The position numbers were made by a program, and so were the translations under genes. A stretch of DNA of 32,000 nt from an uncultured Nitrospiraceae bacterium (GTDB lineage Bacteria; Nitrospirota; Nitrospiria; Nitrospirales; Nitrospiraceae), in NCBI GenBank assembly GCA_963801725.1, contig CAWDFX010000002.1:1507231-1539230 (forward strand). The letters run 5' to 3'. The stretch's first letter is position 1; every line of letters begins with the position of its first letter. Shown here one piece after another: positions 10,632 through 31,941 of the stretch. The notes below the pieces were generated by a model. It did not search any database, had not been told where the DNA came from, and saw nothing but the letters and a program-made list of their open reading frames with translations.

Positions 10632-10785
10632 ATTCCATGCTTGAACATTCTGGCAGGACCGGCACACCAACGTCTGCTTCAGGAACTGACCGAGGCCCGC
10701 TACGCCAGTGGCTGTTCGTGAAGAAACATCAGTCCGGCGATGATCCTGCATCGCGTGCGAAACTGGTCGGATTTCAATCGCCCAC

Positions 10786-11127
10786 TTATGGTGCGTCTTT
10801 TCGAGTCTGGGGGACAGGGGCTGCCGTGATGCAGGACTGCATAATTTCAGCGCGGCATTGCCATGACGTGGCCGCTGTATTGAGATGACGAACCAGTTCT
10901 TCCGGCACGATCATGCCGACGGTGATATCTACCAAGACGTGATCGGGTATGCGATGAAAATGCGCGGCGTTCACACCCTGCAAGGTGAGCAACGCCCTGC
11001 TTAGCTCGTTCTCATGGCTGTCGCAACCAGGTCCTGTCAGCGCGACGGGAACTCTCTCCATGGCAGCCTGGCTGGCTCTGGCCGGCTGAAATACCCCAAG
11101 ACCCACGGTGAGCGCCATCGCCAGCAT
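10786..11127 (-). CDS. Small exported hypothetical protein (about 113 aa), possible ferredoxin-like/HMA-like fold without CxxC
   Basis: The internal start at 11127 gives MLAMALTVGLGVFQPARA|SQA (signal-peptide-like). The upstream part of ORF 10786..11403 is low-complexity. It sits on the same strand directly after the globin gene. The function call is weak. Confidence 0.35.
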   Translation of the reverse strand: MLAMALTVGLGVFQPARASQAAMERVPVALTGPGCDSHENELSRALLTLQGVNAAHFHRIPDHVLVDITVGMIVPEELVRHLNTAATSWQCRAEIMQSCITAAPVPQTRKDAP

Positions 11128-11442
11128 CAGACAGTTGTGCCTGAGCGTGGCCTTGCTGTCTCCATGAGGCTGTGGGCGAGTTGCGGGTACGTTCTTCACA
11201 AAGGGCGTCTGCGTCCGGTTTGCGTATCTGCGATGAGCTGTTCGCGTCATCGGAATACCTGTCAGCAGGGACTCGATCTGAAGCCCTTGGATAGGTTCAT
11301 CGATTTGTTTTAAGATCTCATGGTAGACGGTAATGCGAGTTGTCGGACCCTGCGAAGCTCCGGTTCGGCTGGGTTGCAGTGTTCCTCTCTTGGACGCGTT
11401 CATGGGCAGGCGGCGAGGATCTCACCGCCTGCCCGTTGCCCT

Positions 11443-11889
11443 TTACGGCACTTCGACGATGTCGGACTTCATAGGACCCAGCACGGAAAGGAGTTCGTTC
11501 TTTTCTCTGGCTGGCACGTTGAACGTATCCAATGCCTTGACGAGGTCTTCAACCAGGGCATTGAAGGCAGCCGTCGTGATTTTCATGCCGGCATGCGTTG
11601 TTTTCATGTCTCGCCCCTCATAGGTGCAGGGGCCGCCGCTGGCTTGGCAGACCTGGTCGACCAGTTGTTTTTTCAGTTTCGGCAGATCGGCGTTGGCAAA
11701 ATACCCGTTGATGCGCTTGTCTTGGCCTACGATGCTAACGAACTTGCCGACGACGGCCGTGATAGGGCCTGTTCCACCGAGCCGTTCATAGAGTGAGGGC
11801 AACGGAGCATCGGCTGCCCACACCGGCGCTGAGATCAACAGCAAGGCGACGGTCAGCATAGTCTTGATGGCGCGAGAAAGTTGTTTCAT
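11443..11889 (-). CDS. Group 1 truncated hemoglobin (trHbN-like) with an N-terminal signal peptide
   Basis: Signal peptide MKQLSRAIKTMLTVALLLISAPVWA, then a truncated-globin core (LYERLGG...INGYF...MKTTHAGMKIT...FNALVEDLVKAL). RBS AAAGGAG lies 8 nt upstream of ATG 11889. Confidence 0.85.
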   Translation of the reverse strand: MKQLSRAIKTMLTVALLLISAPVWAADAPLPSLYERLGGTGPITAVVGKFVSIVGQDKRINGYFANADLPKLKKQLVDQVCQASGGPCTYEGRDMKTTHAGMKITTAAFNALVEDLVKALDTFNVPAREKNELLSVLGPMKSDIVEVP

Positions 11890-11962
11890 GAAAGGCGCTC
11901 CTTTTTTGAGAGGTATATGAGGGCTTCCTTCAAATGTACACTTCTATCATATTTCTGGTCGT

Positions 11963-12911
11963 TTAGGGGTTCCAGGGCGTCAGTGGCATCAGCGGAGCAT
12001 CCTTGGCTACCGGTGTAATCGTCAGGGCGGCAATGGCTCCACGAAGGGCTGAAGTGAGCGAATGCGTCACAATCGGGTAGACCCCGGGTGATTCGGAGAC
12101 CAAGTCGAATGTGGCGGCGCTTCCTGGTCCCACAACATAGGTTTGCACCCCTGTGAGTTTATTGGAAGGGTTCCCGCTCTCGTAGACGTTGTCCCAAATC
12201 TCGCCGATCGGGTGGAGCGAGGAAAACTCGTTGGGACCCGCGTTCACAAAATAGATCCGGACACGCTCATTCGGTTTCGCCTCCAGCGCTTCCGCGCCGA
12301 TGAAGAAGGGATGATACTTCCAAATTCCTCCGTTGAAGATCGTATAGTCGAACTTCCGGGCGAACATGGCCTCGACATCGTCGGGGTTACTCCAGAGCTC
12401 TGATTGGACCAACAGAAACTCCCGGTCTGCTTTCGGCCAGACCTTCGGATTCTTGGGATCGACGATAATCGCGCCGAACATGCCGCGCGCGATGTGCTGG
12501 ATCATGGGCGCTGCTCCGCAATGATAGAAAAACACGCCGGGCTTCTTCGCCACAAAGGTGATAGGAAATGGTTTCTCCCGGATTGATGGCCCGATAGTTC
12601 TTCAGGAAATCGATTTCCGCCGCATGGAAGTCCATGGAGTGTTGATAAACATTGGTCTTGGGATTCTCCAGCGTGAAGTTGACAGTGTCACCTTCCGTGA
12701 CCCGCACGGCCGGCCCCGGCATCTGGCCGTTGAACGTCCAGGCCCTATATTTCTTTCCCGTTCCTTCCGTCACGATTTCTACTTCGAGGGCAGTCATCTT
12801 GACGTCATGGGTCTTCGCAGATGCCTCGGAGGGCAATCCCATCAATCCGGCCATCGCAAGGACCATGGCCCCTGCGATGGCCATCAGTTGAGGTGATTGT
12901 CTTTTCATCAT
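11963..12911 (-). CDS. nirK: Copper-containing nitrite reductase NirK, split into two ORFs by a 1-nt frame disruption near 12554-12562
   Basis: The N-terminal ORF carries a signal peptide plus HSMDFHAA (His-x3-Asp... type 1/type 2 Cu region). The C-terminal ORF carries FFYHCGAAPMIQHIARGMFG (His-Cys...His...Met ligand set) and VTHSLTSA (the distal type 2 His region). On the minus strand, tcc tat cac c|ttt gtg gcg aag aag reads ISYH / FVAKKPGVFFYHC, so one base too many or too few separates the halves. ATG 12911 has GAGGAG 7 nt upstream. Confidence 0.85.
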
Positions 12912-13127
12912 GGTTGAACTCCTCTCTGAAATGGTTGAGCGAACCTCTCCAGCCAAATGTACAACTGGTCTTTTCTATGTGAGGGGTCTCACAGGCATTT
13001 CGTCTGTGTGTGAGGAAAAGAATAGCAGAGCCAAATTTTGCAATATGTATCGTAGTGTCCGGTTAAGAGTCAAGCACTTTGACCCAAAACCAGAAAAGTA
13101 GGCCAGCGGAATCTTGCCCACAGCCTA

Positions 13128-13575
13128 CGTGCGGTGTTGGGTCCGCACCGTCAGCCCTTCGTCCGTATACAGCCGATAAATCCGTTTGGCGTTCACCTGC
13201 CACCCTTCCCGTCTCAGCAACACCGTGAGTCGCCGATACCCGAAGCGTACTCGGCTCGCCGCCAACTCTCGCAACCGCATGCGCAACGCCTCCTGCGGAT
13301 CACGGCGACTCCGATACTGTAAGGAGGCTCGCGCCATCGGTAACAGCCTCGAGACCCGGCGCTCACTGACCTGATAGGTCGTTTGCGCCTAGCGTGCCAG
13401 CACACGCCAGTCCCGAGGCCGTACAGCTTTTTTCGCACGATCTCCTGCAGCATATGGCGATCGAGCGAGAGATCTGCCACCAAGCGTTTCAACTTGGCAT
13501 TCTCCTCACGGAGCTGCCGCAGTTCGCGCCGTTCACTGAGGCCCAGCCCCGCATACTTGCGTTTGGCTCCGGGAG
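13128..13575 (-). mobile_element. IS3-family insertion sequence remnant (OrfA C-terminus plus OrfB N-terminus only, no DDE domain)
   Basis: The minus strand reads ...GAKRKYAGLGLSERRELRQLREENAKLKRLVADLSLDRHMLQEIVRKK, followed by the canonical IS3 slippery heptamer A-AAA-AAG (13433..13427). The -1 frame then gives KAVRPRDWRVLAR*AQTTYQVSERRVSRLLPMARASLQYRSRRDPQEALRMRLRELAASRVRFGYRRLTVLLRREGWQVNAKRIYRLY... It contains an in-frame TAG (13391..13389) and is truncated at both ends. Confidence 0.8.
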
Positions 13576-14375
13576 GTAACGATAAGGGCTAGAAATCATT
13601 CGATGATGAAGAATTCTTCACGATCCGTTCACGATCTGCTCATCTGAGGCTGTTACATCGTAGGCAAACGACAGGCCCCCGAATTTTATCTCGGGAATAT
13701 TGAGCAACAGGGTCTGAACATCGACTTGAACAAGCTTTGATGAACACGGGTCTGTACAGCTGGTTCCATTTTGCCAGCAACCAGACGAATGCGGCGAGTA
13801 ACGTTGACATGATCGGGGCGCTGCGAAATTACAGAGCGTCTTATTCACGATTCCAACCCAACCATGCGTACATGTTATGAATGTCGTACGGACCGAGTCG
13901 TCTCCAGGGCTACACTCCCTCCTAGCCTCAAGAATTTCCATTGTGTTATAAAAAGCGGACACGACATATGTTGTCTGCAGGGGGCAAAGGCTGGCATTGA
14001 CAGATTTTTCTGGGGCCTGTATAAGGGCGCCGATCAGATAGGGGAACAACGGCGTTTCCCATCAGCCTCAAGTCATAAATTGATGCGTGGACAATGGCGT
14101 CCTCCAGCCCAAGCGGGCTAGAGGATTTTTTTTGCTCGCATTCGAATCGGCTGAATCACAATGGCGCAGGTGAACTGAGCGATGGGAAAATCTGAGAATA
14201 GCCAGACGTGGGCGATTGGACGGGGAGGGGATTCAGATTGTTATACTGGCGTTGGTTCGACGATGTTGTTGTGGCGAGAGGCTTGCAGGGGGATGCAAGT
14301 AGACAAGTAGGCTGATCTCCGTCTTTCGGTATGTATGATAGAGGCAACCTCGGGAATTGTTTAAGGAGGTGTGAC

Positions 14376-15233
14376 GTGAAGAAGCTGATTGGAAGTATTG
14401 TCGTATTGACAATGGCGACGATTCTGAGTTCTCTGGCTTGGGCACAAGACGGGAAACCACCGGCCCCGCAAGTCAAAACGCGATCTGTGGCGCCTCCTCA
14501 TGACGCCCCCCACTGGAGCTACGAAGGCAAGGATGGCCCTCGATTTTGGGGTAAGCTCGACCCGGATTTTTCGCTTTGTAAAGACGGCCATAAACAGTCG
14601 CCTATCGATATCGGGAAAACCACTCAAGCATCACTTCAGAAACTCGGAGCAGACTTCAGTCCCGCGAAGCTGCAGATCGCGCATCACGAGCATATCGCCG
14701 ACGAGATCAACAATGGCCACACCATCCAGGTCAACTATTCGGAAGGCGATACCCTTACCATTGGAGAAGACAGCTTCGAGCTTATCCAATTCCACTTCCA
14801 TAGTCCGAGCGAGCACACTGTCAAGGGCAAGCATTACCCGATGGAGATGCATTTCGTGCACAAGTCTGCCTCAGGTGCCCTGGCGGTCGTCGGCGTATTC
14901 ATCGAGAAAGGGGCACACAATGTGGCCTTCGACCCTATCTGGTCGAACCTTCCAACGAAAAAGGGAGTCGAGTCACATTTTGAACATGTCCAGGTGAATG
15001 TTGATGATCTTTTGCCGCACAATACTGAGAGCTACCGTTATGATGGTTCTCTGACAACTCCCCCTTGTTCGGAGGGGGTGAGGTGGATCGTGATGAAGTC
15101 TCCTATCCAGCTCTCTGGGGAGCAAATCGGGAAGTTCACGGCGCTCGTCAAGGGGAATAATCGGCCTGTGCAGCCCTTACATCACCGTGTGACTGTGACC
15201 GATGCGGTTACAGAAGAAGTGATGGCGAGATGA
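14376..15233 (+). CDS. Alpha-class carbonic anhydrase, exported
   Basis: HWSYEGKDGP, QSPIDI, NNGHTIQV, QFHFHSPSEH and MEMHFVH (the three Zn His), LTTPPCSEGVRWIV. The likely start is GTG 14376 (VKKLIGSIVVLTMATILSSLAWA signal peptide) with AAGGAGG 6 nt upstream. Confidence 0.9.
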   Translation: MKKLIGSIVVLTMATILSSLAWAQDGKPPAPQVKTRSVAPPHDAPHWSYEGKDGPRFWGKLDPDFSLCKDGHKQSPIDIGKTTQASLQKLGADFSPAKLQIAHHEHIADEINNGHTIQVNYSEGDTLTIGEDSFELIQFHFHSPSEHTVKGKHYPMEMHFVHKSASGALAVVGVFIEKGAHNVAFDPIWSNLPTKKGVESHFEHVQVNVDDLLPHNTESYRYDGSLTTPPCSEGVRWIVMKSPIQLSGEQIGKFTALVKGNNRPVQPLHHRVTVTDAVTEEVMAR

Positions 15234-15323
15234 CGGCCTGAATGGTGGCCACTGGACGAGGTAGATGGAATAATGTGTCAGCAATCGCGGTGTCCGTTCG
15301 GTAGGGACCAGTGTGATTTCCCA

Positions 15324-15362
15324 CTTGTTTGACATGTGTGCATAACACACATGTCAAACAAG
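15324..15362. repeat. Perfect 17-bp inverted repeat (hairpin) with a 5-nt loop in the non-coding spacer
   Basis: cttgtttgacatgtgtg (15324-15340), cataa, cacacatgtcaaacaag (15346-15362). There is no flanking T- or A-tract. It is bracketed by gtaggga (15301) and gtagggc (15363). Confidence 0.7.
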
Positions 15363-16182
15363 AGTAGGGCGATGAACTCAGAAATGCGCCGCCGGCCTCT
15401 CTGCCCTCAGCACAGCTCTATCGGCAAACAGGCTATAGAAGCCTGGTGTGTTGACGGGGCATGATCTTGCACCCCCCATTTGGAAGTGTGTTGGACGCTT
15501 GCCTAAGCGGGAGAATCCCGCATCGAGTGTTACACGCGAAGAGTGAGGACACGCTGTTTGGGGATGAGTTGAATCCAACTACGATCTTAGCAGGAGCGAT
15601 TCCAGGTTGTTTTCTATCAGATAGACTTGGCGATCCGGCGACATATCAAAGTAGGATCCTCGACTGTAATAAAGTGACAGGATGTCTACGAGCACATATC
15701 TTTCACCTATGAACTCAACCAAAGTACATTCGATTCTCGATTTTTCTGTCGTCCGATCTCTATTCGTGTCTGAACACGGTATGTTCCTCGACTAACGACT
15801 GATCTTGCCGGACAATCGCCCCGTGCCCGTCACTTGCTCCGGTTCCGCTAGTCTTCTTTGATTGCAAACACATTGATTCCTCCAAAACTTCGGCGGGTGG
15901 TCGCCGTTATGTCGGCGATCATGCGAAAATCCCCCTGTGGCCAACTGATACTGTCGGATCATGTGCTTGTGAAGTGGCTCTGGGGTAGCATAAACCCCAT
16001 AGATAGAAGCGGTGGAGAGTAAGTATTATGAGTAACTTCAGCGAAGGATAAAATATCGCTCAAATAGAACTAAACGAATAGTCCTGGCAGGAGTTGTTCA
16101 ATTCCGTGCGAACGGTAATCTCTTAGCCGTGGATTCTTAGTATTCGATCGATAGGTCCATTCTATCTATCTTCTCGTTCCAT

Positions 16183-16229
16183 AAAAAAAGCCGATCCGCC
16201 AACCCGTCTCACGACGGGGGCGGATCGGC
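16183..16229 (-). terminator. Rho-independent terminator of amoCAB
   Basis: On the minus strand, 25 nt after the amoB TAA: an 11-bp perfect stem gccgatccgcc/ggcggatcggc (16229..16219 with 16200..16190) enclosing an inner 6-bp stem cccgtc/gacggg, followed immediately by T7 (16189..16183). Confidence 0.85.
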
Positions 16230-16254: not shown

Positions 16255-17520
16255 TTAGCTTCCTACGGCCCTCGTAAAGACTGGGATGATGTTACCAGCT
16301 ATACTGTTGATATGACGATTTCCGGCTTCGTCCCAAGCCATCACGAGCCCTCCGAAGCGCTGGTCAGGATCGTGGACCAGATCCATCAACCTCTGCACTT
16401 CCCAGAGCGAATCACGTGAGTCGAGCTTGACTTCTCTGCTTTCGCCTGGGTTGATGGGAGACTCATCCTCTATATGCAAGCCGTCTAGGGCCATGATCTC
16501 CGGTGGATAGGTCGGGTCCATATTGTTCGCCACCCCCACCTTGTTAAGGAACCTGATTCCTGCCGTCGTGAATTCTCCGATCCTAAGAGGCTGCTCTCCG
16601 CTGTTGGTGACCTGTAGGGTCATGCGAAGGGCGCGACCAGGAACGTCGTAATCTGCGGTGAGAACCTTGATCGTGAGGTCTGACTTCAAATGAGTCGCCT
16701 TGATCTTTGGCTCACCCGCTTGGAGCGGGATAGTATAAGGGTACTGAGAATCTGTCACGAAGAAACCAATTGCGATTAAGACAAAGCACACCCCTAACAT
16801 ACCAAAGGCCACTACACGGTCGACCGGATCGTTTAGGAGCGCATCTCCTCCCTCTTGCGCCAGCACGCGGGCGCGAATGAGGAACATCGGTCTGATTGAG
16901 AACCAGGCAATCCAGAGAAACCCGAGACTACCCCATAGGGCATGCCAGAAGAGCCCGGCCGCCAGGCCTGCGGTCTCCGTATCGATGGTTCCACCAACCA
17001 GCAACTTCACCGGGTTGGTAAAGTCCTTATAGTTGCCTGTGATATCCATCCAGCCCCCAGGTCCGGCGATAGGGCCGGCCCCATTGACTGCCAACATCGG
17101 GTGGATGTGGTGATGTCCAGGTAACCGGCCTCTCAGCTTGATCACATACTCGTAGTCCCCACCGAGCTCCATTGGGCCAGAGGTGACCATCGGAATTCCG
17201 TTCACTTTCGAGCTGAGACGTGTAAACACCGAACTTGGGCTGCCTACGTTTATGAACGTACGCTTGGGCGCAACAACGGCCCTTGGCCAGTCTTCGGATA
17301 TGTGGATCTTGCCAGACAGCATCGCTTCATCGTTGACGGCGGTCTTCTGCGGATTCCATCTTGTGTCATACCATTGAGCGGTACGCATCCGCAGGAACGG
17401 TTCCTGAGACCGCTCCCCGTGGGCGGCGGCGGGAGAGGCAAAGAACACCAGGGGGAGCCCCAGTGTCGCCATCCCGAGGGAGCCGATCACGCACAATTTA
17501 ATTATGTTTTTGGCGTTCAT
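16255..17520 (-). CDS. amoB: Ammonia monooxygenase subunit B (CuMMO PmoB/AmoB family)
   Basis: The signal peptide ends ...SPAAA|HGERSQEPFLRMRT, so the mature N-terminus is His. Contains GHHHIHPM (HxH copper-site region), two internal TM helices and a C-terminal cupredoxin domain. The start overlaps the amoA stop (ATGA at 17520..17517). Confidence 0.95.
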   Translation of the reverse strand: MNAKNIIKLCVIGSLGMATLGLPLVFFASPAAAHGERSQEPFLRMRTAQWYDTRWNPQKTAVNDEAMLSGKIHISEDWPRAVVAPKRTFINVGSPSSVFTRLSSKVNGIPMVTSGPMELGGDYEYVIKLRGRLPGHHHIHPMLAVNGAGPIAGPGGWMDITGNYKDFTNPVKLLVGGTIDTETAGLAAGLFWHALWGSLGFLWIAWFSIRPMFLIRARVLAQEGGDALLNDPVDRVVAFGMLGVCFVLIAIGFFVTDSQYPYTIPLQAGEPKIKATHLKSDLTIKVLTADYDVPGRALRMTLQVTNSGEQPLRIGEFTTAGIRFLNKVGVANNMDPTYPPEIMALDGLHIEDESPINPGESREVKLDSRDSLWEVQRLMDLVHDPDQRFGGLVMAWDEAGNRHINSIAGNIIPVFTRAVGS

Positions 17521-18425
17521 GATTTCCCTTCTGCTAATGTGGCTCCGGCCCCCATAGGTGCTCCTGCCAATTTAGGCGCAATCCCGTCCGGCGTACCATG
17601 CCTTTGTGCAAACTCATCGCTGCCGACAACCATGATATCGTTCTTCCGTGACATTGCGCCGCGTTTGCCCTTGACCCAAAAGAACGATTGACCAACGAAG
17701 TGGCCGATTTGCCACCAAATGGTGAAGACCAACATAGAAACGAAGGCCGAGAAAAACGCCGAGATCCAGACGGTGTGTCCACCGAACGTACGCAGCGATC
17801 CCACCTCAATGATTCGGATATACTCAGGTGTCCCAGTACGGACATAAGTGAATCCCATGTAATCGGCCAGCGACATGAGCTGACCATCCACAACCAACGG
17901 TTGGTGGCTGTATCCGAATAGAGCGTATTGTGTTGGATTAAACATCATTGCGAATGCCCACACCCCGAATATCGCGGTGAGCATCCAGCTCCGAGTCAGC
18001 AACAGGGTGCAATCAAGGATCAGCGCGCTGCTGACCATGGTGGCGGGCATGACGAAGTTCATCGGAAAGTTGGCCCACCAGTACCAAGCAAATACAATCG
18101 TGATCCACTTCCCGACGAGGAGCCCCGTGATGCTCAATGTTGCACCAAACGGTTGCCGGTAGAACGTCCAGAAGTAGTACATGATCGCCCCAGGATACAT
18201 GACCTCGACAATTGGTGTCACCGTCACCCAAAACTGCCGGTCCTTCCAATCGACCCAGAAATCCCAGTCTCCTGCAAGCAGGTCGAAGTGCATATGAAAG
18301 GTTGCGAATACCCCTAAATATGCAATCGGAATGAAATACACCGCATCTATCATTCTTGACAGCTTGACGCCTTCCGGCGGAAGCTTGCTGGCTTTGATAA
18401 TTTCTGCGGTTCTAAACAGTGCCAT
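17517..18425 (-). CDS. amoA: Ammonia monooxygenase subunit A, divergent lineage, with an Ala/Gly/Pro-rich C-terminal extension
   Basis: MALFRTAEIIKASKLPPEGV..., LLAGDWDFWVDWKDRQFW, YVRTGTPEYIRIIEVGSLRTFGGHT, SAFFSAFVSML. The likely start is ATG 18425, preceded by GAGGAGGGG; the ORF-track GTG 18440 lies inside that RBS. Confidence 0.95.
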   Translation of the reverse strand: MALFRTAEIIKASKLPPEGVKLSRMIDAVYFIPIAYLGVFATFHMHFDLLAGDWDFWVDWKDRQFWVTVTPIVEVMYPGAIMYYFWTFYRQPFGATLSITGLLVGKWITIVFAWYWWANFPMNFVMPATMVSSALILDCTLLLTRSWMLTAIFGVWAFAMMFNPTQYALFGYSHQPLVVDGQLMSLADYMGFTYVRTGTPEYIRIIEVGSLRTFGGHTVWISAFFSAFVSMLVFTIWWQIGHFVGQSFFWVKGKRGAMSRKNDIMVVGSDEFAQRHGTPDGIAPKLAGAPMGAGATLAEGKS

Positions 18426-18488
18426 TTGTCCCCTCCTCACTCGTTCTGAACATCAGTCTCCTCCCCATAGTTCAACTAGCCTCCCGAC

Positions 18489-19289
18489 TTAGTACGGGAT
18501 CACATGCAAACAGTCCTTGCTCTCGTTGTTCCAGACCACATCACACAGGTTGGACATGCGCGCCACGATCTGCGCCGCCACGCCCCCCGTGCCGCCGAAC
18601 AACCCGCACCAGCCCAACGTCACAAAGCCCCAGTGCAACGGCGCGGCAAAGAGCTCATCGACGAACCAGAACGCATGCCCCCACTCATTGAGGCCCACGT
18701 TCGGCAGAATCATCATCGGCCCCACGATCGCTCCCACCAACGGGAACGAGACCGCCTTGCTGAACTGCGGCAGCCGGGTCATGGCATACAGGTAACTCGC
18801 GACGCCACAGGTGATGTACAACGGGAAGGTGAAGTAGAACGCGATAATATGGCTGGCGGTGAAGCTCGTATCGCGGATGATCACTTGATGCCACGACGCA
18901 TCCTGCTCCAGCGTATAACTGCCGGCCCAGTACACGCCGAACACATAAATCGCGAGCCACATCATCCAGTAAAAGTACCGCTTGAGTTCCGTCTTGGGAT
19001 CGACGTTGGCGATGTTCCGATCCCGCGTGCTCCAAATCCATCCCAGGGTCGCGGCCGAGAAGATGATGTTGGAAATCACGTTAAAGCGCCACAGGCCCAT
19101 CCAGACGTTTTCGAACTCCGGCGTCATCGAGTCCAACCCGTGGGAGTACCCAAAGACGCGCTGAAACACGACCTCGGCGCCCACCGCCGCCAACATTGCA
19201 AACCAGCCGATCTTGAGAGGCCTGGAATCGTACCAGAGCGACATGTCGTACCCCCGGTCGCTACCCCCCCATGTTGTTGAACTCGCCAT
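18489..19289 (-). CDS. amoC: Ammonia monooxygenase subunit C
   Basis: [57 protein letters not shown] (the conserved AmoC/PmoC metal-site region). ATG 19289 has GGAGG 7 nt upstream. Confidence 0.95.
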
Positions 19290-19396: not shown

Positions 19397-19426
19397 AGAT
19401 TAGCGGATACGGTTTCTTGATGTCAA
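19397..19426 (-). promoter_or_regulatory. Candidate sigma70-type promoter for amoC
   Basis: The minus strand has a perfect -35 TTGACA (19426..19421), an 18-nt spacer and a weak -10 TAATCT (19402..19397), about 110 nt upstream of the amoC ATG. This is a pattern match only. Confidence 0.2.
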
Positions 19427-19460: not shown

Positions 19461-19476
19461 TGCAAAATGCGTGCAA
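19461..19476 (-). promoter_or_regulatory. Sigma54-like -24/-12 motif and TTGCA-N7-TGCAA palindrome abutting the IS end
   Basis: The minus strand reads TTGCACGcattTTGCA against the consensus TGGCACG-N4-TTGCA. All specified positions match except the first G of the GG dinucleotide. The same bases form an inverted repeat TTGCA..TGCAA. Confidence 0.15.
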
Positions 19477-19477
19477 A

Positions 19478-20490
19478 GGACTATGCACTTAACTCCAGTT
19501 TCGTCACCTAAATTAAGAGGTGCCCGCAACCAGTCTGGAGTAGGGGGCAGGCTCAATTGATACAGCTTGCGCGACAAGTCCGTAGAACAGTTTCCAACGG
19601 TATCTGGACGTTCGACGGTTGAATCTAAACGTGAATTCCTCGAGATAGGTATCCAGCTGCTCGCGGGACAGTGCACCTTGATGGGTACCCATCAACCAGC
19701 GTCTCAACAAGGAGGCGACCCGGTGTACGCGGGGTAGCAAGGCAGACGACTGTTTTGCCGTTGGCATTGATCAATCGCGGTCGGTGCTTGAAACCCTCCT
19801 GTTTCAACCCTGCATAGCCTTTCCATCCATCCGTGATGACTATGGAGCCTGGTTCAACCACGTGTTTTACGAAGGTGACGAGCTGACTCGGAGAGGCGGC
19901 GGGAATCCGACGCAGACGGATGCGCCCAATCCCTTTCCCATCAATCTGCGCGGCGATCGCCACCAGGGCCTTGCTCTCTAGGTGCCAGCGGCCTCCTCCC
20001 GCCTCGACGTTCCCCATATGCATTTCGTCCACTTCAACTTCGCCTCCCAGTCTGTCCCAATCCGGCAGTACCATTGCTCGCCGCAATTTTTGTAGCCACA
20101 ACCAGGCAGTTCTATAACTGCCAAAGCCCAGCAGGCGCTGTAGTCCTAAGGCGCTGAGCTGGTGTTTCTGTCCGGTCATCCACCACATGGCTCGGAACCA
20201 GTCCTGCAAAGGAAGGCGGGTTCGATGGAAGATCGTTCCCGCTGTGACCGAGGCTTGGTATCCGCATCGGCGGCACATCAAGAGGCATCGTGTGGTTGTC
20301 CAACTGCCGTTGGTCGTGCACTGTGGGCAACAGAACCCAGTCGGCCAACGCAACCGAGCTAGGTAGGCACGGCACGCACCTTCTGTGGCGAAGCGCTGCT
20401 CGAACTCGGCGAGGGTCCGCATTATATAGTCCTCCACGGTGTGACCCCGCTAGGCCTGGGGTATACTGGAGTCAAGTGCATAGTCCGTTG
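19478..20490 (-). mobile_element. IS1595-family insertion sequence, full length with terminal inverted repeats
   Basis: IR-L 19478-19499 ggactatgcacttaactccagt; IR-R 20465-20486 actggagtcaagtgcatagtcc, whose reverse complement is ggactatgcacttgactccagt (21/22). The heptamer gtgcaaa occurs at 19471-19477, directly abutting IR-L, and at 20492-20498, 5 nt beyond IR-R; this may be a target duplication. Confidence 0.85.
19513..20422 (-). pseudogene. IS1595-family (ISXO2-like DDE) transposase, frameshifted near 19745-19765
   Basis: N-terminal Zn-ribbon (CPQC...CRRCGY), then the DDE region (EVEVDEMHMG..., SIVITDGWKGY). The C-terminal part (LPRVHRVASLLRRWLMGTHQGALSREQLDTYLEEFTFRFNRR) lies in a different frame (ORF 19513..19767). 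The switch is around the A4 run in ggcaaaaca. ATG 20422 has GGAGG 8 nt upstream. Confidence 0.85.
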
Positions 20491-20880
20491 TGTGCAAAAA
20501 ATATACAAGAAGGTGTTGTAATGTCAAGCACGCAGGAACACCTAAGATTGCCACGCGGCATCTGTGCCAACAAAGGCTGACGATCGCCGAGCTTCCTGAT
20601 CCTGTGTCCCGTCAGGGGCTCACCCGCGCTCATGCAACTGTTTGGGGTTGTTTAGAATGAAGGTCCCGACTAGCCTGTGGGGTATTCGGGCAAAGAAAGT
20701 ATAGGGCGCAACGACCTTGCTACTACAGGGTTTTGAGGAGCAGAGTATTTCTAACTGTCATATTCGAATTGTCGAGAAACCATAGCCGCCATATCCTCTT
20801 CTCCTTAAAGTTCTCCTTAAAAAGTAATCAGTGAGACGTGCCCCGGTCTGCGCCAGACCCATTTTCTTCCATATGGGAAC

Positions 20881-22902
20881 TCAGTGCACGTGATCGTCTG
20901 GAGGCGGACGAATTTCATCTTCCCTGTTAAGTTGACCGATCTCCCGCATCAATGCGCCGATGTCCGTCCATCCCGCTCCATCCACCTCAGGGATCCAGCG
21001 CGCCCGCAGATAGCCATAGCGGTCTATCAGGAACTCCATGTGTTTGGGCGCTGTTCCCTCACCGGCCAGATCAGGATTGCTGAGGGTTCTACGGAACAAT
21101 GCGTAGCTTTTCGCAATTTCCGGCCCACCCTGCGTTGCCACGGGGAAAGGCATGTTTGCCAAGACTGACTCCAGATCCTGCTGTTTGCTGTCATTCACTG
21201 GGACCGCCAGCACCACCGTATTGCTGCCACTTAGTGTGGCGTATGCCAGCCGCAACTGATCGAGCCTCGTGCGTGACTCTGGCCACGAAAACAGCACCAA
21301 CAGCACTATTTTGTGTTGGCGGAAATCCTTCAACGTGCCGCTTGCGCCGTCGTGCGCGGAATAGGAGAAGTTTTGCGGGGCCATATAGGGCTGATTGGGG
21401 GCGACAAAGGGGTTGATGAGGCGCGCCTGATAGCCGCGGGACGTGGCATGGAGAAAGTTCACGACATCCCAGCGATCCTCTTCTGTAAGTTTGTCAGCAA
21501 ATGCCGGCATACCTGTATCGGGAATACCATAAGTCAGCCAGTGGAAAAAATCGCCTGCGGTGTGCTTGAGAGTGTGCGGCTCCGTGAGCAGATCCACCGG
21601 TGGCTTCTTGAAGGTCTTGGCCAGAACGCCATTGCCCTTGGCTTGAGGGCCGTGGCAAGGCACGCAGTTCGCGGCGAAGTGGGTCGCACCGTTGGCAACA
21701 GAAATGGCATCGAACGGGACCGGCGTCTTACGGTAGGTTTCAGGATAGGCCTGAATAGCAATGGGAGGCAGCGCCACGGCCAGCGCACAGGCAGCCAGTG
21801 CGATCGGGATGGTTATGCGCCATTTTGTTTTCCAGCGTTTGGTTCGACCTAGTATGATCGCCCCACCTGCCAGCACAAGCAGTGCGATTCCGATTCCCCC
21901 TCCAATCATCGCTCCCGGCTCGCCCCAGGTGGCGTCGATGGAGAAGCGGAATGGATAGGGCCAGTCTTCAATGACGGCATGCTTTGCCGGCACGGCGTTG
22001 GCCAGCACTGTTGCCACCAACACCAGCGTCAACGCGATCGCGAATTCGACGGATACCCATTTTCGAAGGCCTCGGCCACCGGCTGCAGCTACATTAGGGT
22101 TCTGATCAAGCGACGGCACCCAGAGGAGGCGAGCGCATGCGCCGATCACAAGAATCGGTGCGAGCAACGAGACCTTTGTATTCAGTAGCCAGCCGTAGCT
22201 CGTCGCAACTAATGCAGCGTAGCTCGTGTCCACCATCTGATCCGCAACGAGGATGCCGGTGGCAACGACAGCGACCATCACCGGCAACGCTATTGCCGAG
22301 AAACGCTTCAGGGTCTGGATATCGGACCGATCCACTTCATCGTGTGAGCCCTTCCTACTAGTGGCGAATATGACCGTGAGAATGGCTGGCAACCCTCCGA
22401 ACCAGACACTTGCGAGAATGATGTGCAGCGTGTAGGGCAGGACCGATGCCACGGATAGCTCTCCGGCTGCGGAATGGCTTGCGAGCGATCCCACTGCCAG
22501 CGTGAGCGCGGCGAAGGTCGCGCACAACACATACCGCCAATGCGCCGAAGGGGAGAATCGAATGTAGAGGGCTACGCCGAGGACGATAAGCGCAAGGGCT
22601 GCGCGCGCCATCCAGATGAGTCCTATGCGGGTTTTCTGTAAGAATTCTAGCCAGGCCCCCGGGTGCCAAGCATTTTCGGCTAACCCCGTGGCCTGCGCCG
22701 TAGTCGTGGCCAGCAAGCCCACCAACCCTAGCAAAAGCGCGACTGAAAGCCACGGTAACGCCTGTCCCAGGCGGGCTGGCCATGGGGCGTCGGATGCGGT
22801 TCTGGCGCGCACGGCAATCGCGAGAAAGACGCAGCCGCCGATCAGGATCATGTTGGACGCAAGCTGCAGCCAGCGGAACAGCGCGCCGATGACCTCGATC
22901 AT
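20881..22902 (-). CDS. copD: CopD-family copper transport membrane protein fused to a mono-heme cytochrome c domain and a Cys-less thioredoxin/peroxiredoxin-fold domain
   Basis: About 380 aa of polytopic CopD-like membrane domain. Next comes CVPCH (codons 413-417, about 21652-21666) with a downstream GMPAF Met ligand region. The final ~170 aa have a redoxin-like fold (KIVLLVLFSWPESR...VLAVPVND...MEFLIDRYGYLRARW) lacking catalytic Cys. ATGA overlap with copC. Confidence 0.85.
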   Translation of the reverse strand: MIEVIGALFRWLQLASNMILIGGCVFLAIAVRARTASDAPWPARLGQALPWLSVALLLGLVGLLATTTAQATGLAENAWHPGAWLEFLQKTRIGLIWMARAALALIVLGVALYIRFSPSAHWRYVLCATFAALTLAVGSLASHSAAGELSVASVLPYTLHIILASVWFGGLPAILTVIFATSRKGSHDEVDRSDIQTLKRFSAIALPVMVAVVATGILVADQMVDTSYAALVATSYGWLLNTKVSLLAPILVIGACARLLWVPSLDQNPNVAAAGGRGLRKWVSVEFAIALTLVLVATVLANAVPAKHAVIEDWPYPFRFSIDATWGEPGAMIGGGIGIALLVLAGGAIILGRTKRWKTKWRITIPIALAACALAVALPPIAIQAYPETYRKTPVPFDAISVANGATHFAANCVPCHGPQAKGNGVLAKTFKKPPVDLLTEPHTLKHTAGDFFHWLTYGIPDTGMPAFADKLTEEDRWDVVNFLHATSRGYQARLINPFVAPNQPYMAPQNFSYSAHDGASGTLKDFRQHKIVLLVLFSWPESRTRLDQLRLAYATLSGSNTVVLAVPVNDSKQQDLESVLANMPFPVATQGGPEIAKSYALFRRTLSNPDLAGEGTAPKHMEFLIDRYGYLRARWIPEVDGAGWTDIGALMREIGQLNREDEIRPPPDDHVH

Positions 22903-23303
22903 TTCTTTTGCACTTTATCCTTTACCGTGAAGTCGAAGGAAGACTCCACCACGTGACCGTCTACCGACAGCACCCGAAATTTCACGGAATACTTCCCAGG
23001 CGCCAATTCCGGTAATGGCAGGATGATGGATTTTCGATCATCCGGAGCAAGTTGAGGATGGATCTCGGTTACAGGATGCTTTTCGGCGTCGAGCACGACA
23101 AGGGACGCGTAGTCGCCTTCGATTTCTTCGTTGAACCAGAGTCGTACCTGCGCCGGCGCTTTGGCGAGGAGAGCCCGGCGCGGCGGCTCTGCCTTGACCA
23201 GCATTGAATGAGCTAACGCCGGAGCGGCATATACGCACATAGCCATGGCCATCACTGCGCCTACCATGACGCGCTTGGGCGCATGAACGACCCATGATCC
23301 CAT
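22899..23303 (-). CDS. copC: CopC-family periplasmic copper-binding protein
   Basis: The signal peptide ends ...APALA|HSMLVKAEP, so the mature N-terminus is His. A CopC beta-sandwich pattern follows (VRLWFNEEIE..., YSVKFRVLSVDGHVVESSFDFTV). GAGGAGGG lies 6 nt upstream of ATG 23303. Confidence 0.9.
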   Translation of the reverse strand: MGSWVVHAPKRVMVGAVMAMAMCVYAAPALAHSMLVKAEPPRRALLAKAPAQVRLWFNEEIEGDYASLVVLDAEKHPVTEIHPQLAPDDRKSIILPLPELAPGKYSVKFRVLSVDGHVVESSFDFTVKDKVQKK

Positions 23304-23406: not shown

Positions 23407-23994
23407 CTACGAAACGGTACTAACCGAGGGTTTGCGGCGACTGCGTAGGAAAAAGAAGATCGCCGCTCCACCGGCAATCGCTGCGAGCGGGACTATGACC
23501 ATGATGTAGTGCATGAAGTGCGAAACCACTCCCGATTCTCCTACCGAGATCGGGAATCGCGCTACATGTTCCTGCGTGCCCCCAACGGTGACTACACCGA
23601 TGAATTTGCCGGGCTGGTTGAAGTTATATTCGAAATTGATGAAACCTCCGGGGTAGACTTTGGGCGGCAGGTGAACGATCGTGATGGCCTGAAGGTCCTG
23701 CTCCGAACCCGTATCTTTGACGACCCGGACCTCGACGGGCAACGAACGGAGTTCCCCTTCGATATAATCGAGCACCAACACCGTACGGCCGGTCGACGGA
23801 ACATCCCCGCAGAGCTCTCTTTGGGCTGAGGTGTCAGGCTGATATTCGGTAAGGTGCATGCCGTAGGGTCCAAGCTTGAGTATGCAGAAGTTCTTGTCCA
23901 GCTCATGAAAGTGTTGGGCCTCTGCGGAGAGTGGAACTCCGATCGCCAGCATCAAAAAGCACACAACCGCGGGTTTCAGAAATCGCAAAGACAT
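23407..23994 (-). CDS. AmoD/AmoE (PmoD)-like exported protein with a C-terminal TM anchor, paralog 1
   Basis: Signal peptide, then a ~140-aa periplasmic domain (FCILKLGPYGMHLTEYQP...ELCGDVPSTGRTVLVLDY...), then a single C-terminal TM helix and a basic tail. The likely start is ATG 23994 (GAGGA 8 nt upstream), not the overlapping ORF-track start at 24168. The family assignment rests on architecture, motif and synteny with copCD/amoCAB. Confidence 0.65.
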   Translation of the reverse strand: MSLRFLKPAVVCFLMLAIGVPLSAEAQHFHELDKNFCILKLGPYGMHLTEYQPDTSAQRELCGDVPSTGRTVLVLDYIEGELRSLPVEVRVVKDTGSEQDLQAITIVHLPPKVYPGGFINFEYNFNQPGKFIGVVTVGGTQEHVARFPISVGESGVVSHFMHYIMVIVPLAAIAGGAAIFFFLRSRRKPSVSTVS

Positions 23995-24082
23995 CGTCAG
24001 TATCCTCATCGTTAGGCGTCTCAATTTCCTCGTTGAACCAGAGTCACACTGCGCCGGCGTGTTGGATCGGCTAGCCGGATGC

Positions 24083-24667
24083 CTATGAAACGGTACTGCC
24101 AGAAGTTTTGCCACGCCCGCGCAGAGCAAAGAAGAGCACCCCAATAACAGCGACCCCTGCGAATGCAATCAAGAAGTATGAGGGTGGCAACGGAATTTTC
24201 GTCTCCCCTACCGAGAATGGAAATCGTGATACATGTATTTGCTTGTCGCCTACGGTGACCAGGCCGACGAATTTACCGGGCTGGTCGAAATTGTATTCGA
24301 AATTGACCGTGCCGTTGGGATAGACCTTGGGCGGCAGGTGAAGGACTGTGATGGCCTGAAGGTCTTGCTCCGAGCCCGTATCCTTGATGACCCGAACCTC
24401 GGTGGGCAACGGGCGAAGAGCATCTTCCATGTAGTCGAGTACCACGACCGTGCGACCAGTTGCCGGAATATCCTCGCAGAATTCCTTGTTGCGCGTGTTG
24501 TCAGGCTGATAGCCGGTGAAGTGCATGTTGTACGGGCCGATCGTGAGTCGGCACATGTCCTCTGCCAGTGCCAGTCCTCCGTGAGCCTGGGCCTGTGTGG
24601 AGAATGTAACTCCGATCGCCAGCATCAAGAAGCACGCGCTAGCAGATTTCAGCAATTGCGCAGCCAT
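24083..24667 (-). CDS. AmoD/AmoE (PmoD)-like exported protein with a C-terminal TM anchor, paralog 2
   Basis: MAAQLLKSASACFLMLAIGVTFSTQAQA|HGG..., MCRLTIGPYNMHFTGYQP...EFCEDIPATGRTVVVLDY. About 60% identical by eye to paralog 1, with long near-identical DNA stretches. ATG 24667 is preceded by GAGGGAGGG. Confidence 0.65.
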   Translation of the reverse strand: MAAQLLKSASACFLMLAIGVTFSTQAQAHGGLALAEDMCRLTIGPYNMHFTGYQPDNTRNKEFCEDIPATGRTVVVLDYMEDALRPLPTEVRVIKDTGSEQDLQAITVLHLPPKVYPNGTVNFEYNFDQPGKFVGLVTVGDKQIHVSRFPFSVGETKIPLPPSYFLIAFAGVAVIGVLFFALRGRGKTSGSTVS

Positions 24668-24720
24668 TGTCAGGACCCTCCCTCTCGAATGTTGAACCAT
24701 GTGCTCACAGGCCGGAACAC

Positions 24721-25317
24721 CTAGTTTCCCGTCCGGCGGACTGCCCACCAATTCCGCACCCACTTCGATCGTACGAGCTTGTACACGAGCCACGCCGCGA
24801 GCAGCACGCCGAACAATGGGATGCCCACGGAGCGCAGCAGCTTCTGATAATCGGTCATGTGTACCCGCAAGAGATACTGCGGGCGCCGCATCAGATTCTG
24901 CTTCTCTGCCGCAATGGTGACCGTATACAGACCCTCGTCCAGCCGGACTTCTCCCCGGAGCACTCCGTCCGGGTGGGTGCTCGGACGAATATCGGCTACA
25001 ATCTGATCTTCTGCCTCATTGCCCCCGTTTCCCTTCACGACTCGCATCCCGACCGGCTCGTTGCGTAGCGACGGGTCCACGAGGTCTACGACGAGAAAGG
25101 TGTCGCCTTCTTTGGGAATGTCTGTGCAGTATTGATCTTTCAACTCGTATTGCGGCTGATAGGCGCTGAAGTGCACCACGCGTTCACCGACTCTGCGCAA
25201 ACACGGATCGTCTTCTCCACTGGTTGCCCCATGTGCGGCAGCTAGGCTGGGCAGGTATAGTGCAGCACCAAGAAGCACGAGCACGATTGCGCCTGTCCGT
25301 GTCACCTGTCTCTTCAT
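24721..25317 (-). CDS. AmoD/AmoE (PmoD)-like exported protein with a C-terminal TM anchor, paralog 3 (most divergent)
   Basis: MKRQVTRTGAIVLVLLGAALYLPSLAAA|HGA..., PCLRRVGERVVHFSAYQP...QYCTDIPKEGDTFLVVDL, with a C-terminal TM (IPLFGVLLAAWLVYKLV). AGGAGAG lies 8 nt upstream of ATG 25317. Confidence 0.6.
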   Translation of the reverse strand: MKRQVTRTGAIVLVLLGAALYLPSLAAAHGATSGEDDPCLRRVGERVVHFSAYQPQYELKDQYCTDIPKEGDTFLVVDLVDPSLRNEPVGMRVVKGNGGNEAEDQIVADIRPSTHPDGVLRGEVRLDEGLYTVTIAAEKQNLMRRPQYLLRVHMTDYQKLLRSVGIPLFGVLLAAWLVYKLVRSKWVRNWWAVRRTGN

Positions 25318-26248
25318 AGGTCGAACTCTCCTGTGTGGGACTCTGCGCGGAGGCGCAGCTCATTCCGCCCACCGTGACGGCGTTCCATGCGGCTCAGCGA
25401 TCCCAGTGCATAGTTGCGCGACTGGCCACATATCGTATCAAGTGGTATTACCATGATGCCATTAAAGCAGGGCAAGATTCTAGCCCCCCTCGCGAGGTAT
25501 GCAAAAACCTCGAAATTGTTTTTCTGTTGGGTTCGACCGGAGCACCGGCTGTCCGATTTGAACCATCTTCGATTGAAGGCATAAATAAGGGCAGGCACTG
25601 CGCACCTATTTCTCGAAGCTTTCCCGCGTGGATATCCGGAGCCAAGAACCGGGCATTGTTTTCCCATCCGTAAGGTTGGTAGGGGAATGCCGTGATAGAA
25701 AACAGTGGTGGAGTTTAGATGATACACAAACCACACGATTCCTCGATAATGGGTACATGTTACATGCATCTACGTACCAAGAGAAGGGCTGCTAGGGGCA
25801 CGCCTTTCCGCCGTTGCATTCGCGACCAACGGCTTTCCTCTTGCTTGTGTGGCAGGATTTGGTTGCTGGTGGGGGATCTGGTCTTGTTCCTCTTGGATGT
25901 GATGGCCCAGCGGAGAGTACAACGAATGAATTTCTGGTGCCGAGAGTTCGATCAGTGGGTTTGAGCAACAGGCTTGGAGGTACGGTCATATCGTACCCGC
26001 GCAATCCATCTTTGACTTGCCGATGTCTGATGGGCGACAATTGCAAATCCATTGTGCGTTCCCTTTTCATGAGGCCGCAAATTGCCGCATGGTGACGTCG
26101 ACTTTGCGGAGGGAATACCGATTCAGATACGGGTGTCTTGTATGAGACGCCAGACGGTATCGAGAAGGCGTTCGCGAACAGCAAGACCTTTAAAAGCTCA
26201 ACGCTGCGGCAATTCTTATTCTTCAGTTCCCGTGGGATTTCTCGAAAT

Positions 26249-26869
26249 ATGTTCCAAATCGTCGCACTGAGCGGCAGCCGGGGAGAGCGGTTGCTGTTTT
26301 CCGATATCAGCGTGACGGTCACGCCAGGAACTCTGTTGGCTGTGGTCGGTGAGAACGGCAGCGGGAAAACCAGCTTCCTTCGCATGCTGTGCGGGTTGTT
26401 GTCGCCTGATAACGGCACGATTCTTTGGCAGGGGAAAGACATTCGCCAGCTTAAGGAACTCTATCGTGCCCAGTTTACTTACGTGGGGCATCTCAACGGA
26501 ATCAAGGATGAGCTGACTCCAGTTGAAAACCTTACGGTCTCTGCCTGCCTGGCGGGCGATGAAAGTGCGAGTGGAGTTGTGCAGAAGGCGTTGGAGGCAG
26601 TCGGTCTTGGGCGACCGATCCATCGTCTGCCGACGCGCGTACTCTCGCAAGGACAAAAGCGCCGCGTGGCTCTGGCGCGTCTCTGGCTTTCCACTCGTCC
26701 GTTATGGCTCTTGGATGAACCATTTGCATCACTCGATGTTACAGCCACAAGTTACTTGACCCGGCACCTTCAGTCCCACCTGAGTCATGGTGGCATGGTG
26801 GTCGTCGCCACGCACCAGGAGATCGATCTTCCATCTGATTGCATTCAGCACCTGAGGCTGACTCGATGA
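26249..26869 (+). CDS. ccmA: Heme exporter ATP-binding protein CcmA
   Basis: Walker A GENGSGKT, ABC signature LSQGQKRR, Walker B LWLLDEP. The likely start is ATG 26249 (MFQIVALSG...). The stop overlaps the ccmB start (ATGA). Confidence 0.9.
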   Translation: MFQIVALSGSRGERLLFSDISVTVTPGTLLAVVGENGSGKTSFLRMLCGLLSPDNGTILWQGKDIRQLKELYRAQFTYVGHLNGIKDELTPVENLTVSACLAGDESASGVVQKALEAVGLGRPIHRLPTRVLSQGQKRRVALARLWLSTRPLWLLDEPFASLDVTATSYLTRHLQSHLSHGGMVVVATHQEIDLPSDCIQHLRLTR

Positions 26870-27549
26870 GTCAGCCCAGTCTGAGTGAGGCATTACACGG
26901 CGTTGTCCGACGGGACCTCCTGTTGGCTATGCGGCACCGCTCGGATGTGGCGATGTCGGTGTTCTTTGTCGTCATCGTCGCGAGCCTCTTTCCGTTGGGG
27001 GTTGGGCCGGAGCCGGCGGTTCTGAGGATGATCGCCTCCGGTGTGCTCTGGGTTACGGCCTTGCTTGCGTGTCTGTTGTCGTTGGGGCGCTTGTTCACTG
27101 CGGATTATCTTGATGGTGTGTTAGAACAGACGCTCTTGATCCCTCAACCGCTGGCTGTCTTGGTCGTTGGCAAGGTGTTCTCGCACTGGGTCATCTCTGG
27201 CTTGCCAGTGGTTCTGCTCTCGCCTCTCCTCGGCCTGCAATTCGGCTTGAGTGGAGAGTCGCTCTGGGTGTTGACGTTATCGCTCTTGCTTGGTACGCCG
27301 ACGTTGAGTATGATTGGAGCCATTGGAGCTGCATTAACTCTTGGATTGCGTGGGAGTGGCTTGCTGGTTGCCCTCCTGGTGCTTCCACTTTTTATTCCGG
27401 TGCTGATCTTTGGGGCCGGCGCCGTTACGAATAGTTTGGCCGGAATCGGAAGCGAAGCGAATCTGTCGCTGCTTGGAGCCTGCTTCCTGTTCTCGCTCAC
27501 ATTTGCGCCATGGGCCACGGCTGTTGCATTGCGCATTGCATTGGAATAA
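26866..27549 (+). CDS. ccmB: Heme exporter membrane protein CcmB
   Basis: Polytopic membrane protein of about 227 aa with typical CcmB sequence (FFVVIVASLFPLGVGPEP..., DYLDGVLEQTLL). Sits in the ccmA-B-C order. Confidence 0.9.
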   Translation: MSQPSLSEALHGVVRRDLLLAMRHRSDVAMSVFFVVIVASLFPLGVGPEPAVLRMIASGVLWVTALLACLLSLGRLFTADYLDGVLEQTLLIPQPLAVLVVGKVFSHWVISGLPVVLLSPLLGLQFGLSGESLWVLTLSLLLGTPTLSMIGAIGAALTLGLRGSGLLVALLVLPLFIPVLIFGAGAVTNSLAGIGSEANLSLLGACFLFSLTFAPWATAVALRIALE

Positions 27550-27558
27550 GACATCGTT

Positions 27559-28476: not shown

Positions 28477-28491
28477 GAGGAAGCGAAGACG

Positions 28492-28959: not shown

Positions 28960-28967
28960 GAGCCGAC

Positions 28968-31871: not shown

Positions 31872-31941
31872 CCGATGTGACGTTGTCGGAAGCCGAGCAC
31901 AATCGTGTGACGCAACTACTTTCCGAAGGAGCTCGTCGTCC

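Follow-up and report, generated by a model that had tools for sequence, protein, structure and literature searches.

A complete amoCAB operon of bacterial ammonia monooxygenase type in an uncultured Nitrospiraceae bacterium and its probable assignment to clade B comammox

Here we describe an ammonia monooxygenase (AMO) gene cluster from contig CAWDFX010000002.1 (assembly GCA_963801725.1) of an uncultured Nitrospiraceae bacterium, found in a stretch of 32,000 nucleotides, positions 1,507,231 to 1,539,230 of the forward strand; this whole stretch is referred to below as the window. Three minus-strand genes, amoC, amoA and amoB, located between positions 16255 and 19289 of the window, encode a bacterial AMO-type copper membrane monooxygenase (CuMMO) that is complete and intact and has every known copper ligand. 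We assign this operon, with a probability of about 0.92, to a clade B comammox (complete ammonia oxidation) bacterium of the family Nitrospiraceae and the GTDB genus Palsa-1315, the strain being the same as, or near-identical to, 'Candidatus Nitronatura plena'. The initial annotation of the window had proposed a comammox-type Nitrospira; our results support this interpretation and confirm the observation behind it.

The operon consists of the following features:

18489–19289, minus strand: amoC, 266 aa, with the D-x3-H-x12-H and N-x3-H-x13-H copper-site motifs (Pfam AmoC, 2.6e-105)
17517–18425, minus strand: amoA, 302 aa from the ATG at 18425 (Pfam AMO, 8.6e-92)
16255–17520, minus strand: amoB, 421 aa, comprising a signal peptide, His34 as the mature N-terminus and the H-I-H motif (Pfam Monooxygenase_B, 1.2e-144)
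16183–16229, minus strand: intrinsic terminator, beginning 26 nt past the amoB stop, with a G+C-rich stem followed by T7

As the list of open reading frames (ORFs) and their translations demonstrates, the three genes are contiguous and contain no internal stops or frameshifts, and subunits A, B and C, encoded together, each match their own family model in Pfam and NCBIfam. All three exceed the curated cut-offs of the general CuMMO equivalogs TIGR03078/03080/03079, as well as those of the AMO-specific models, namely AmoC_BACT (342.8 bits against a cut-off of 319), AmoA_BACT (310.1 against 290) and AmoB_BACT (515.4 against 336). The absence of frame disruptions, claimed in the initial annotation, thus holds for amoCAB but not for the neighbouring genes, several of which carry single-base frameshifts (see below). 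Similarly, the strong ribosome-binding sites attributed to all three genes are indeed found before amoC (AGGAGG, 8 nt upstream of the ATG) and amoA (GAGGAGG, 6 nt upstream of the ATG), but the GAAGGGA of amoB is weaker than both. The stop codon of amoA and the start codon of amoB share an ATGA overlap, and this pair is translationally coupled. For amoA, the ORF lister had proposed a GTG start at 18440 (17517–18440); we rejected it in favour of the ATG at 18425, which is likelier given the ribosome-binding site 6 nt upstream and the 302 aa length in the public record. The terminator announced after amoB is also present: an 11-bp G+C-rich stem (16229–16219 pairing with 16200–16190) surrounds an inner hairpin of 6 bp, and T7 follows at 16189–16183; the folding energy is −42.3 kcal/mol (z = −4.95). 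It was recognised by reading and folding, since a simple terminator scan, whose loop limit is shorter than the 18-nt stretch between the outer arms, gave nothing after amoB. The amoCAB genes would be transcribed as a single unit from upstream of amoC to the terminator.

All of the metal-site motifs pointed out beforehand were present in the translations: AAA/HGERSQ and GHHHIHPM in AmoB, NEWGHAFW...PLHWGF in AmoC, and AGDWDFWVDWKDRQFW in AmoA. In alignments, the mature chains of the solved AMO structures begin exactly at His34 of our AmoB, while the DASWH...ASH and NEWGH...PLH segments of AmoC are kept in 9leg_C. Hence, subunit B carries its N-terminal His and an H-x-H motif, and subunit C carries both D-x3-H-x12-H and N-x3-H-x13-H; following established structural work on particulate methane monooxygenase (pMMO), we take these AmoB and AmoC positions to be the CuB, CuC and CuD ligand sites. 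The best solved relative of AmoC was subunit C of AMO (9leg_C, 2.1e-117, compared with approximately 1e-67 for pMMO), and over all three subunits E-values ranged from 1e-107 to 6e-158 for solved bacterial AMO chains versus 1e-67 to 2e-104 for pMMO. Together with the scores above the AMO-specific equivalog models, this places the enzyme, as judged from its sequence, nearer to bacterial AMO than to pMMO.

One peculiarity of clade B AmoA, including that of the window, is a C-terminal tail of approximately 28 aa (RHGTPDGIAP...LAEGKS; about residues 275–302, window positions 17517–17600), absent from the AmoA of betaproteobacterial ammonia-oxidising bacteria (beta-AOB) and from the solved AMO structures. 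Some other Nitrospira AmoA sequences have the LAEGKS/LAGGKA ending without the linker, and the AmoA sequences of CG24A, RSF6 and RCB end differently (...TAATSLS or ...TAATTLS).

The closest relative of the window is the closed genome OZ317818.1 (NCBI GCA_974707355.1; 3,284,172 bp), whose AmoA, AmoB and AmoC proteins are all 100% identical to ours. Window positions 6254–27520 are the reverse complement of a stretch of this reference genome at 99.86% identity, with 25 substitutions and five single-base indels. OZ317818.1 corresponds to MFD06229.bin.1.58, a circular closed metagenome-assembled genome (MAG) reassembled from a sphagnum acid bog sample in the Microflora Danica atlas (Nature 2025, PMC12823411), and serves as type material for 'Candidatus Nitronatura plena', a clade B comammox lineage of the GTDB genus Palsa-1315 (PMC12823411). 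An identical operon is thus already known from a genome named and published in 2025, and since all three proteins are identical to those of 'Ca. Nitronatura plena', the finding of amoCAB as such is not new. More generally, amoCAB operons of clade B comammox have been known since 2015–2018.

The phylogenetic position of the operon was assessed primarily with AmoA, which was used for a scan of one genome per GTDB species. There, 41 loci matched at 83–97% identity over the best aligned segment, nearly all of them titled Nitrospiraceae, Nitrospira or Nitrospirota and including Nitrospira sp. CG24A, CG24C, CG24E, RCB, RSF3 and RSF6, and the next tier was composed of PmoA-type proteins at 42–49%. 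AmoA was 86–98% identical to sequences from 38 Nitrospiraceae species genomes, CG24A/C/E and RCB among them. In a large protein collection, the next groups were AmoA sequences from Nitrospira/Nitrospirota (60–65%) and then from betaproteobacterial AOB (55–58%). CG24_A, C and E were assigned to comammox clade B by amoA phylogeny (Palomo et al., 10.1101/138586), and the Rifle genome of clade B is RCB (Poghosyan et al. 2019, PMC6852473).

In a neighbour-joining tree (236 core positions; a distance tree without bootstrap), AmoA of the window fell inside this clade B group together with CG24A/C/E and RCB, apart from the other Nitrospira AmoA sequences, which are presumably those of clade A comammox (Ca. 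N. inopinata, N. nitrosa, N. nitrificans), and from beta-AOB. Here, the entries for CG24A and RSF6, translated from a point ahead of an in-frame stop, were only three residues long and gave a false long branch; the identity of CG24A by tblastn was 88%. Core identities agreed with the topology, being 90–99.6% within clade B, 59–65% with other Nitrospira, 58–60% with beta-AOB and 45–50% with PmoA. The other two subunits behaved likewise: AmoB and AmoC were 84–98% and 93–99% identical to the clade B loci, respectively, and at most 43–48% identical to pmo-type loci. We also observed an AmoA group labelled 'Nitrospirota bacterium' (proteins P0003–P0006, 276–282 aa), 64–66% identical to AmoA of the window, which branched beside the other Nitrospira, probably clade A, sequences.

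One could still propose that the operon belongs to a classical ammonia oxidiser or methanotroph of the Proteobacteria and is an amo or pmo operon that has diverged, given that its AmoA is 58–60% identical to AmoA of Nitrosomonas and other Betaproteobacteria and that the family models are common to AMO and pMMO. For Nitrosomonas itself, we obtained 57.9–58.7% over 235 core positions, within the 55–60% that had been estimated by eye. However, the nearest AmoA relatives all belong to Nitrospiraceae, none of the three proteins nests within a clade of beta- or gammaproteobacterial AOB or of methanotrophs, the gene order is unlike that of beta-AOB, and Nitrospiraceae contigs as long as 688 kb show the flanking transketolase (tkt), malQ and two-component genes in collinear order. 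The earlier statement that this is not a beta-AOB allele therefore stands, and we give a proteobacterial origin practically no chance. The preferred assignment to clade B of Nitrospiraceae (lineage II / Palsa-1315) is corroborated from the side of the host by these collinear flanks and by the near-identity of the window with the closed Nitrospiraceae genome.

The surroundings of amoCAB comprise the following features:

26249–31945, plus strand: genes ccmA to ccmH (A, B, C, D, E, F, G, H) for system I of cytochrome c maturation, reading divergently to the amo/cop genes
24721–25317, minus strand: a more divergent PmoD/AmoD-family gene, 198 aa (8.9e-06 to PmoD 6cpd, residues 38–95)
24083–24667, minus strand: a PmoD/AmoD-family gene, 194 aa (5e-24 to the solved PmoD structure 6cpd)
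23407–23994, minus strand: a PmoD/AmoD-family paralog of amoE/D/D2 type, 195 aa as called in the reference, with approximately 73% nucleotide identity to 24083–24667
22899–23303, minus strand: copC, 134 aa (Pfam CopC, 1e-21)
20881–22902, minus strand: copD, fused to cytochrome c and thioredoxin-like (AhpC/TSA) domains, 673 aa (Pfam CopD, Cytochrom_C, AhpC-TSA)
19475–20490, minus strand: an IS1595-family element (Pfam; L082:2610–3625) with 28-nt terminal inverted repeats and a transposase gene at 19513–20422
14374–15233, plus strand: a secreted alpha-type carbonic anhydrase
13125–13564: an IS3-family helix-turn-helix fragment
11963–12911, minus strand: a nirK-type copper nitrite reductase, split in the window and intact (315 aa) in the reference
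11443–11889: a truncated globin

Read along the amo strand, the order is three PmoD/AmoD-family genes, copC, copD, the IS1595 element, amoC, amoA, amoB and the terminator, in agreement with the amoD/E-copCD genes that had been proposed upstream of amoCAB. The three ORFs at 23407–25317 match no Pfam or NCBIfam model and were identified by comparison with the PmoD structure. The length of the CopD fusion is exactly 673 aa in all eight clade B genomes compared. Two further ORFs, 25314–25769 and 25792–26442, lie in the divergent intergenic region between amo and ccm; they gave zero matches, and we treated them as spurious. Beyond amoB follow a variable stretch with the alpha-carbonic anhydrase and the IS3 fragment, then nirK and the truncated globin, and then tkt, malQ and a sigma54 two-component pair, the last three being the core neighbours named in the initial annotation. 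In OZ317818.1, an intact ccmC-I series is followed by haoA (569 aa), haoB (315 aa) and cycA, the start of haoA being located approximately 2.6 kb beyond the end of the window. Comammox genomes are described as having amo, copDC, hao and cytochrome c biogenesis genes in one region and, in clade B, nirK near the hao cluster (10.1101/138586); the layout of the window agrees with this description.

Mobile-element remnants on both sides of the operon (the IS3 fragment and the IS1595 element), along with a change near 27.75 kb in the divergence from the reference, might evoke an assembly chimera in which Nitrospira core genes were joined to foreign amo genes. Yet the change falls in the ccm genes, at neither of the amo junctions, and the same adjacencies recur in the closed circular genome, in a 144 kb ENA contig and in many clade B assemblies obtained independently, with different assemblers and from different samples. 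By BLASTN, both the tkt/malQ side and the cop/ccm side were collinear with amoCAB at 80–94% nucleotide identity in many independent Nitrospiraceae assemblies, some of the collinear contigs being 350–690 kb long; for tkt, malQ and the sigma54 two-component genes the identity was 80–89%. Because the flanks are collinear in so many independent assemblies and in a closed circular genome, the joins between core and amo genes are real rather than chimeric, which settles the question of continuity across 13–20.9 kb; a chimera seems to us extremely improbable.

Two segments between tkt and amoB deserve a comment of their own. The block at 10700–13116, containing nirK, the truncated globin and a small ORF, has 94–97% nucleotide identity across clade B species, compared with 80–89% for the neighbouring tkt and amo genes, which suggests either recent exchange or unusually strong constraint. 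The variable island at 13117–16147, between nirK and amoB, is shared as a whole only by the reference and locus L001 among the genomes compared, and the IS3-family fragment is inverted in several other genomes.

The window differs from OZ317818.1 by a series of frameshifting indels. An extra G at 12560 splits nirK, another extra G is found at 11354, and nine more single-base indels are located at 28288, 29031, 29665, 30397, 31474, 31523, 31712, 31852 and 31969. Those in the ccm genes, which are intact in the reference, split ccmF into three ORFs by two frameshifts, split ccmG/H and fuse ccmC to ccmD. Divergence from the reference is approximately 0.1% before 27.7 kb (6254–27700) and approximately 4.4% over 27750–32000, mostly at third codon positions, with the shift occurring part-way through ccmC. 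The window is thus a mosaic of two strains, arising either by recombination or by mixed-strain assembly. A third assembly of the locus, L081 (ENA ERZ25039492 contig_4214, the 144 kb contig mentioned above), is 97.3% identical to the window and carries its own, different frameshifts, splitting ccmC, ccmF, ccmI, haoA and haoB; it illustrates how prone to error long-read metagenome contigs are in this population. We considered whether nirK and the ccm genes could be true pseudogenes and rejected this: the genes are intact in the reference, and the ccm indels are concentrated in the strain-divergent segment. The frameshifts of the window are probably long-read consensus errors or a product of strain mixing, not gene decay, and those in the neighbouring genes should not be taken as marks of pseudogenes.

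The gene content allows us to outline a putative pathway. AMO would oxidise ammonia to hydroxylamine in the membrane, copper being handled by the PmoD/AmoD-family proteins and CopCD encoded just upstream. The haem enzymes HaoA and CycA, encoded just beyond the window, would depend on the adjoining ccm system I for their maturation, and hydroxylamine oxidoreductase (HAO) with CycA/CycB would take hydroxylamine onward and pass electrons to the quinone pool. Finally, nitrite oxidoreductase (NXR), presumably encoded elsewhere in the genome, would oxidise nitrite to nitrate in the same cell, as expected from the literature on this genome and clade. Ammonia as the likely substrate is suggested by homology and by haoA, haoB and cycA, which come after ccmI beside the cluster in the reference genome with identical AMO proteins. 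Complete nitrification, in turn, is suggested by homology and genome content, the NXR part being drawn from the literature: amoA and nxrA were identified in the recovered MAGs, and the species was named for complete ammonia oxidation (PMC12823411). It is in this sense that the candidate complete nitrifier of the initial annotation should be read, as the AMO and lineage parts of that claim are borne out, specifically for clade B, by the tree and the identities, while its remaining part depends on NXR and relies on the cited atlas.

Several points speak against this assignment and pathway, in favour of an AMO carrier incapable of complete nitrification, be it for want of a working NXR or through decay of its ammonia-oxidation pathway. 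Neither NXR nor HAO genes lie within the window; our scan of clade B loci for long NxrA-like ORFs returned only ORFs unlike NxrA by their end sequences, on which no family search was made. The frameshifts in ccmF (two), ccmC/D and ccmG/H, if real, would block cytochrome c maturation and hence HAO, and nirK is frameshifted as well. Moreover, clade B comammox does not have any cultured representative (PMC12823411). On the other hand, the closed reference, with its identical AMO proteins, has intact nirK and ccm genes, and the indels are single-base and concentrated where the window diverges by about 4% from that reference, which fits consensus errors in a mixed-strain assembly. We discount the ccm frameshifts because they are absent from the closed reference and concentrated in the strain-divergent segment, and we consider an AMO carrier of this incomplete kind very unlikely. 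A clade B comammox bacterium capable of complete nitrification is, in our opinion, the better interpretation.

The IS1595-family element between copD and amoC requires separate consideration. In the window, its transposase gene is broken by an extra C at 19747, and in the reference it is intact (302 aa). At least 12 clade B genomes carry the element at the same site between copD and amoC. In genomes other than that of the window, the transposase gene has its full length; the cores of the inverted repeats do not vary, unlike the surrounding intergenic DNA. The median ratio of nonsynonymous to synonymous substitution rates (dN/dS) for the transposase is 0.145 at dS 0.63, compared with 0.166 for copD and 0.163 for copC, so that it looks to be under purifying selection. 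The best 120 of 7,997 transposase homologs (E ≤ 1e-10) are 301–310 aa long and at least 84% identical, and the few of these that carry organism names are all from Nitrospiraceae. Approximately 10 bp outside the right inverted repeat, at 20500–20527 on the minus strand, there is a near-consensus sigma70-type site, TTGACA-N16-TATATT (11 of 12 matches), oriented through the element and toward amoC. Of its two halves, TTGACA is conserved among the clade B genomes with the element, and TATATT differs at one or two positions. Another TTGACA is located at 19421–19426, 130 bp upstream of amoC, within a conserved patch. In the genomes without the element (CG24A, RCB, L022 and L035), the DNA upstream of amoC has no meaningful similarity to that of the window beyond approximately 35 bp before the ATG.

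Such a pattern of conservation is unusual for a passive insertion. Given the same site in at least 12 genomes, the full-length transposase with low dN/dS and the invariant inverted-repeat cores, it is tempting to suppose that the clade B amo cluster has kept the element as a functional component, and that it is not a passive scar left by lateral transfer, although we regard this as rather unlikely. If true, the element could influence amoCAB transcription from the putative TTGACA-N16-TATATT site or maintain the mobility of the amoCAB block. A transposase near amoCAB has come up in earlier papers, but only as a hint of lateral transfer (PMC6852473), and in the literature searched we found no description of a fixed position or apparent constraint of this IS1595 element.

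According to the Microflora Danica atlas (PMC12823411), clade B comammox bacteria rank first in abundance among the ammonia oxidisers of natural Danish soils and sediments, which makes their AMO relevant to models of soil nitrification and N2O emission. The window itself adds no new biology on soil nitrification by clade B, as the operon is already present in the published closed genome. Its practical value is that a comammox amo cluster was correctly recognised from the bare sequence.

Finally, we would like to compare the operon with known systems. 'Ca. Nitronatura plena' shares the gene order from malQ to ccmH with the window, in which nirK, the transposase gene of the IS1595 element and several ccm genes are disrupted by indels. 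The clade B MAGs CG24_A/C/E, RCB and RSF3/6/48 have AmoA, AmoB and AmoC proteins 86–92%, 84–93% and 93–98% identical to ours, respectively, and have the AmoA C-terminal tail in common with the window. Among them, CG24C (L012) resembles the window in having PmoD-family genes, copC, copD, the IS1595 element, amoCAB and adjoining ccm genes. CG24A and RCB, along with L022 and L035, differ: homology to the window ends 30–40 bp upstream of the amoC start, and both the IS1595 element and the copD neighbourhood are missing from that position. The other Nitrospira, probably clade A, encode an AmoA of the same enzyme family and presumably the same function, but on a separate branch at the 59–65% identity given above. 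Clade A is also reported to have Rh-type ammonium transporters instead of the AmtB type (PMC6852473).

The bacterial AMO structures (PDB 9leg, 9cl6 and 9pxf) align near end-to-end with all three subunits, keep the copper-ligand motifs and have the same mature His of AmoB; relative to them and to beta-AOB, AmoA of the window is approximately 58–60% identical to the named beta-AOB sequences and longer by the approximately 28 C-terminal residues. The layout differs too, as beta-AOB have the order amoCAB-amoED-copCD, whereas the accessory genes of the window lie upstream of amoCAB. Lastly, pMMO (PDB 1yew and 7s4h) has the three-subunit copper membrane monooxygenase fold and the ligand motifs in common with our enzyme; its PmoA is 45–50% identical to AmoA of the window, and the context of the window type consists of hao and ccm genes, not of genes for methanol oxidation.

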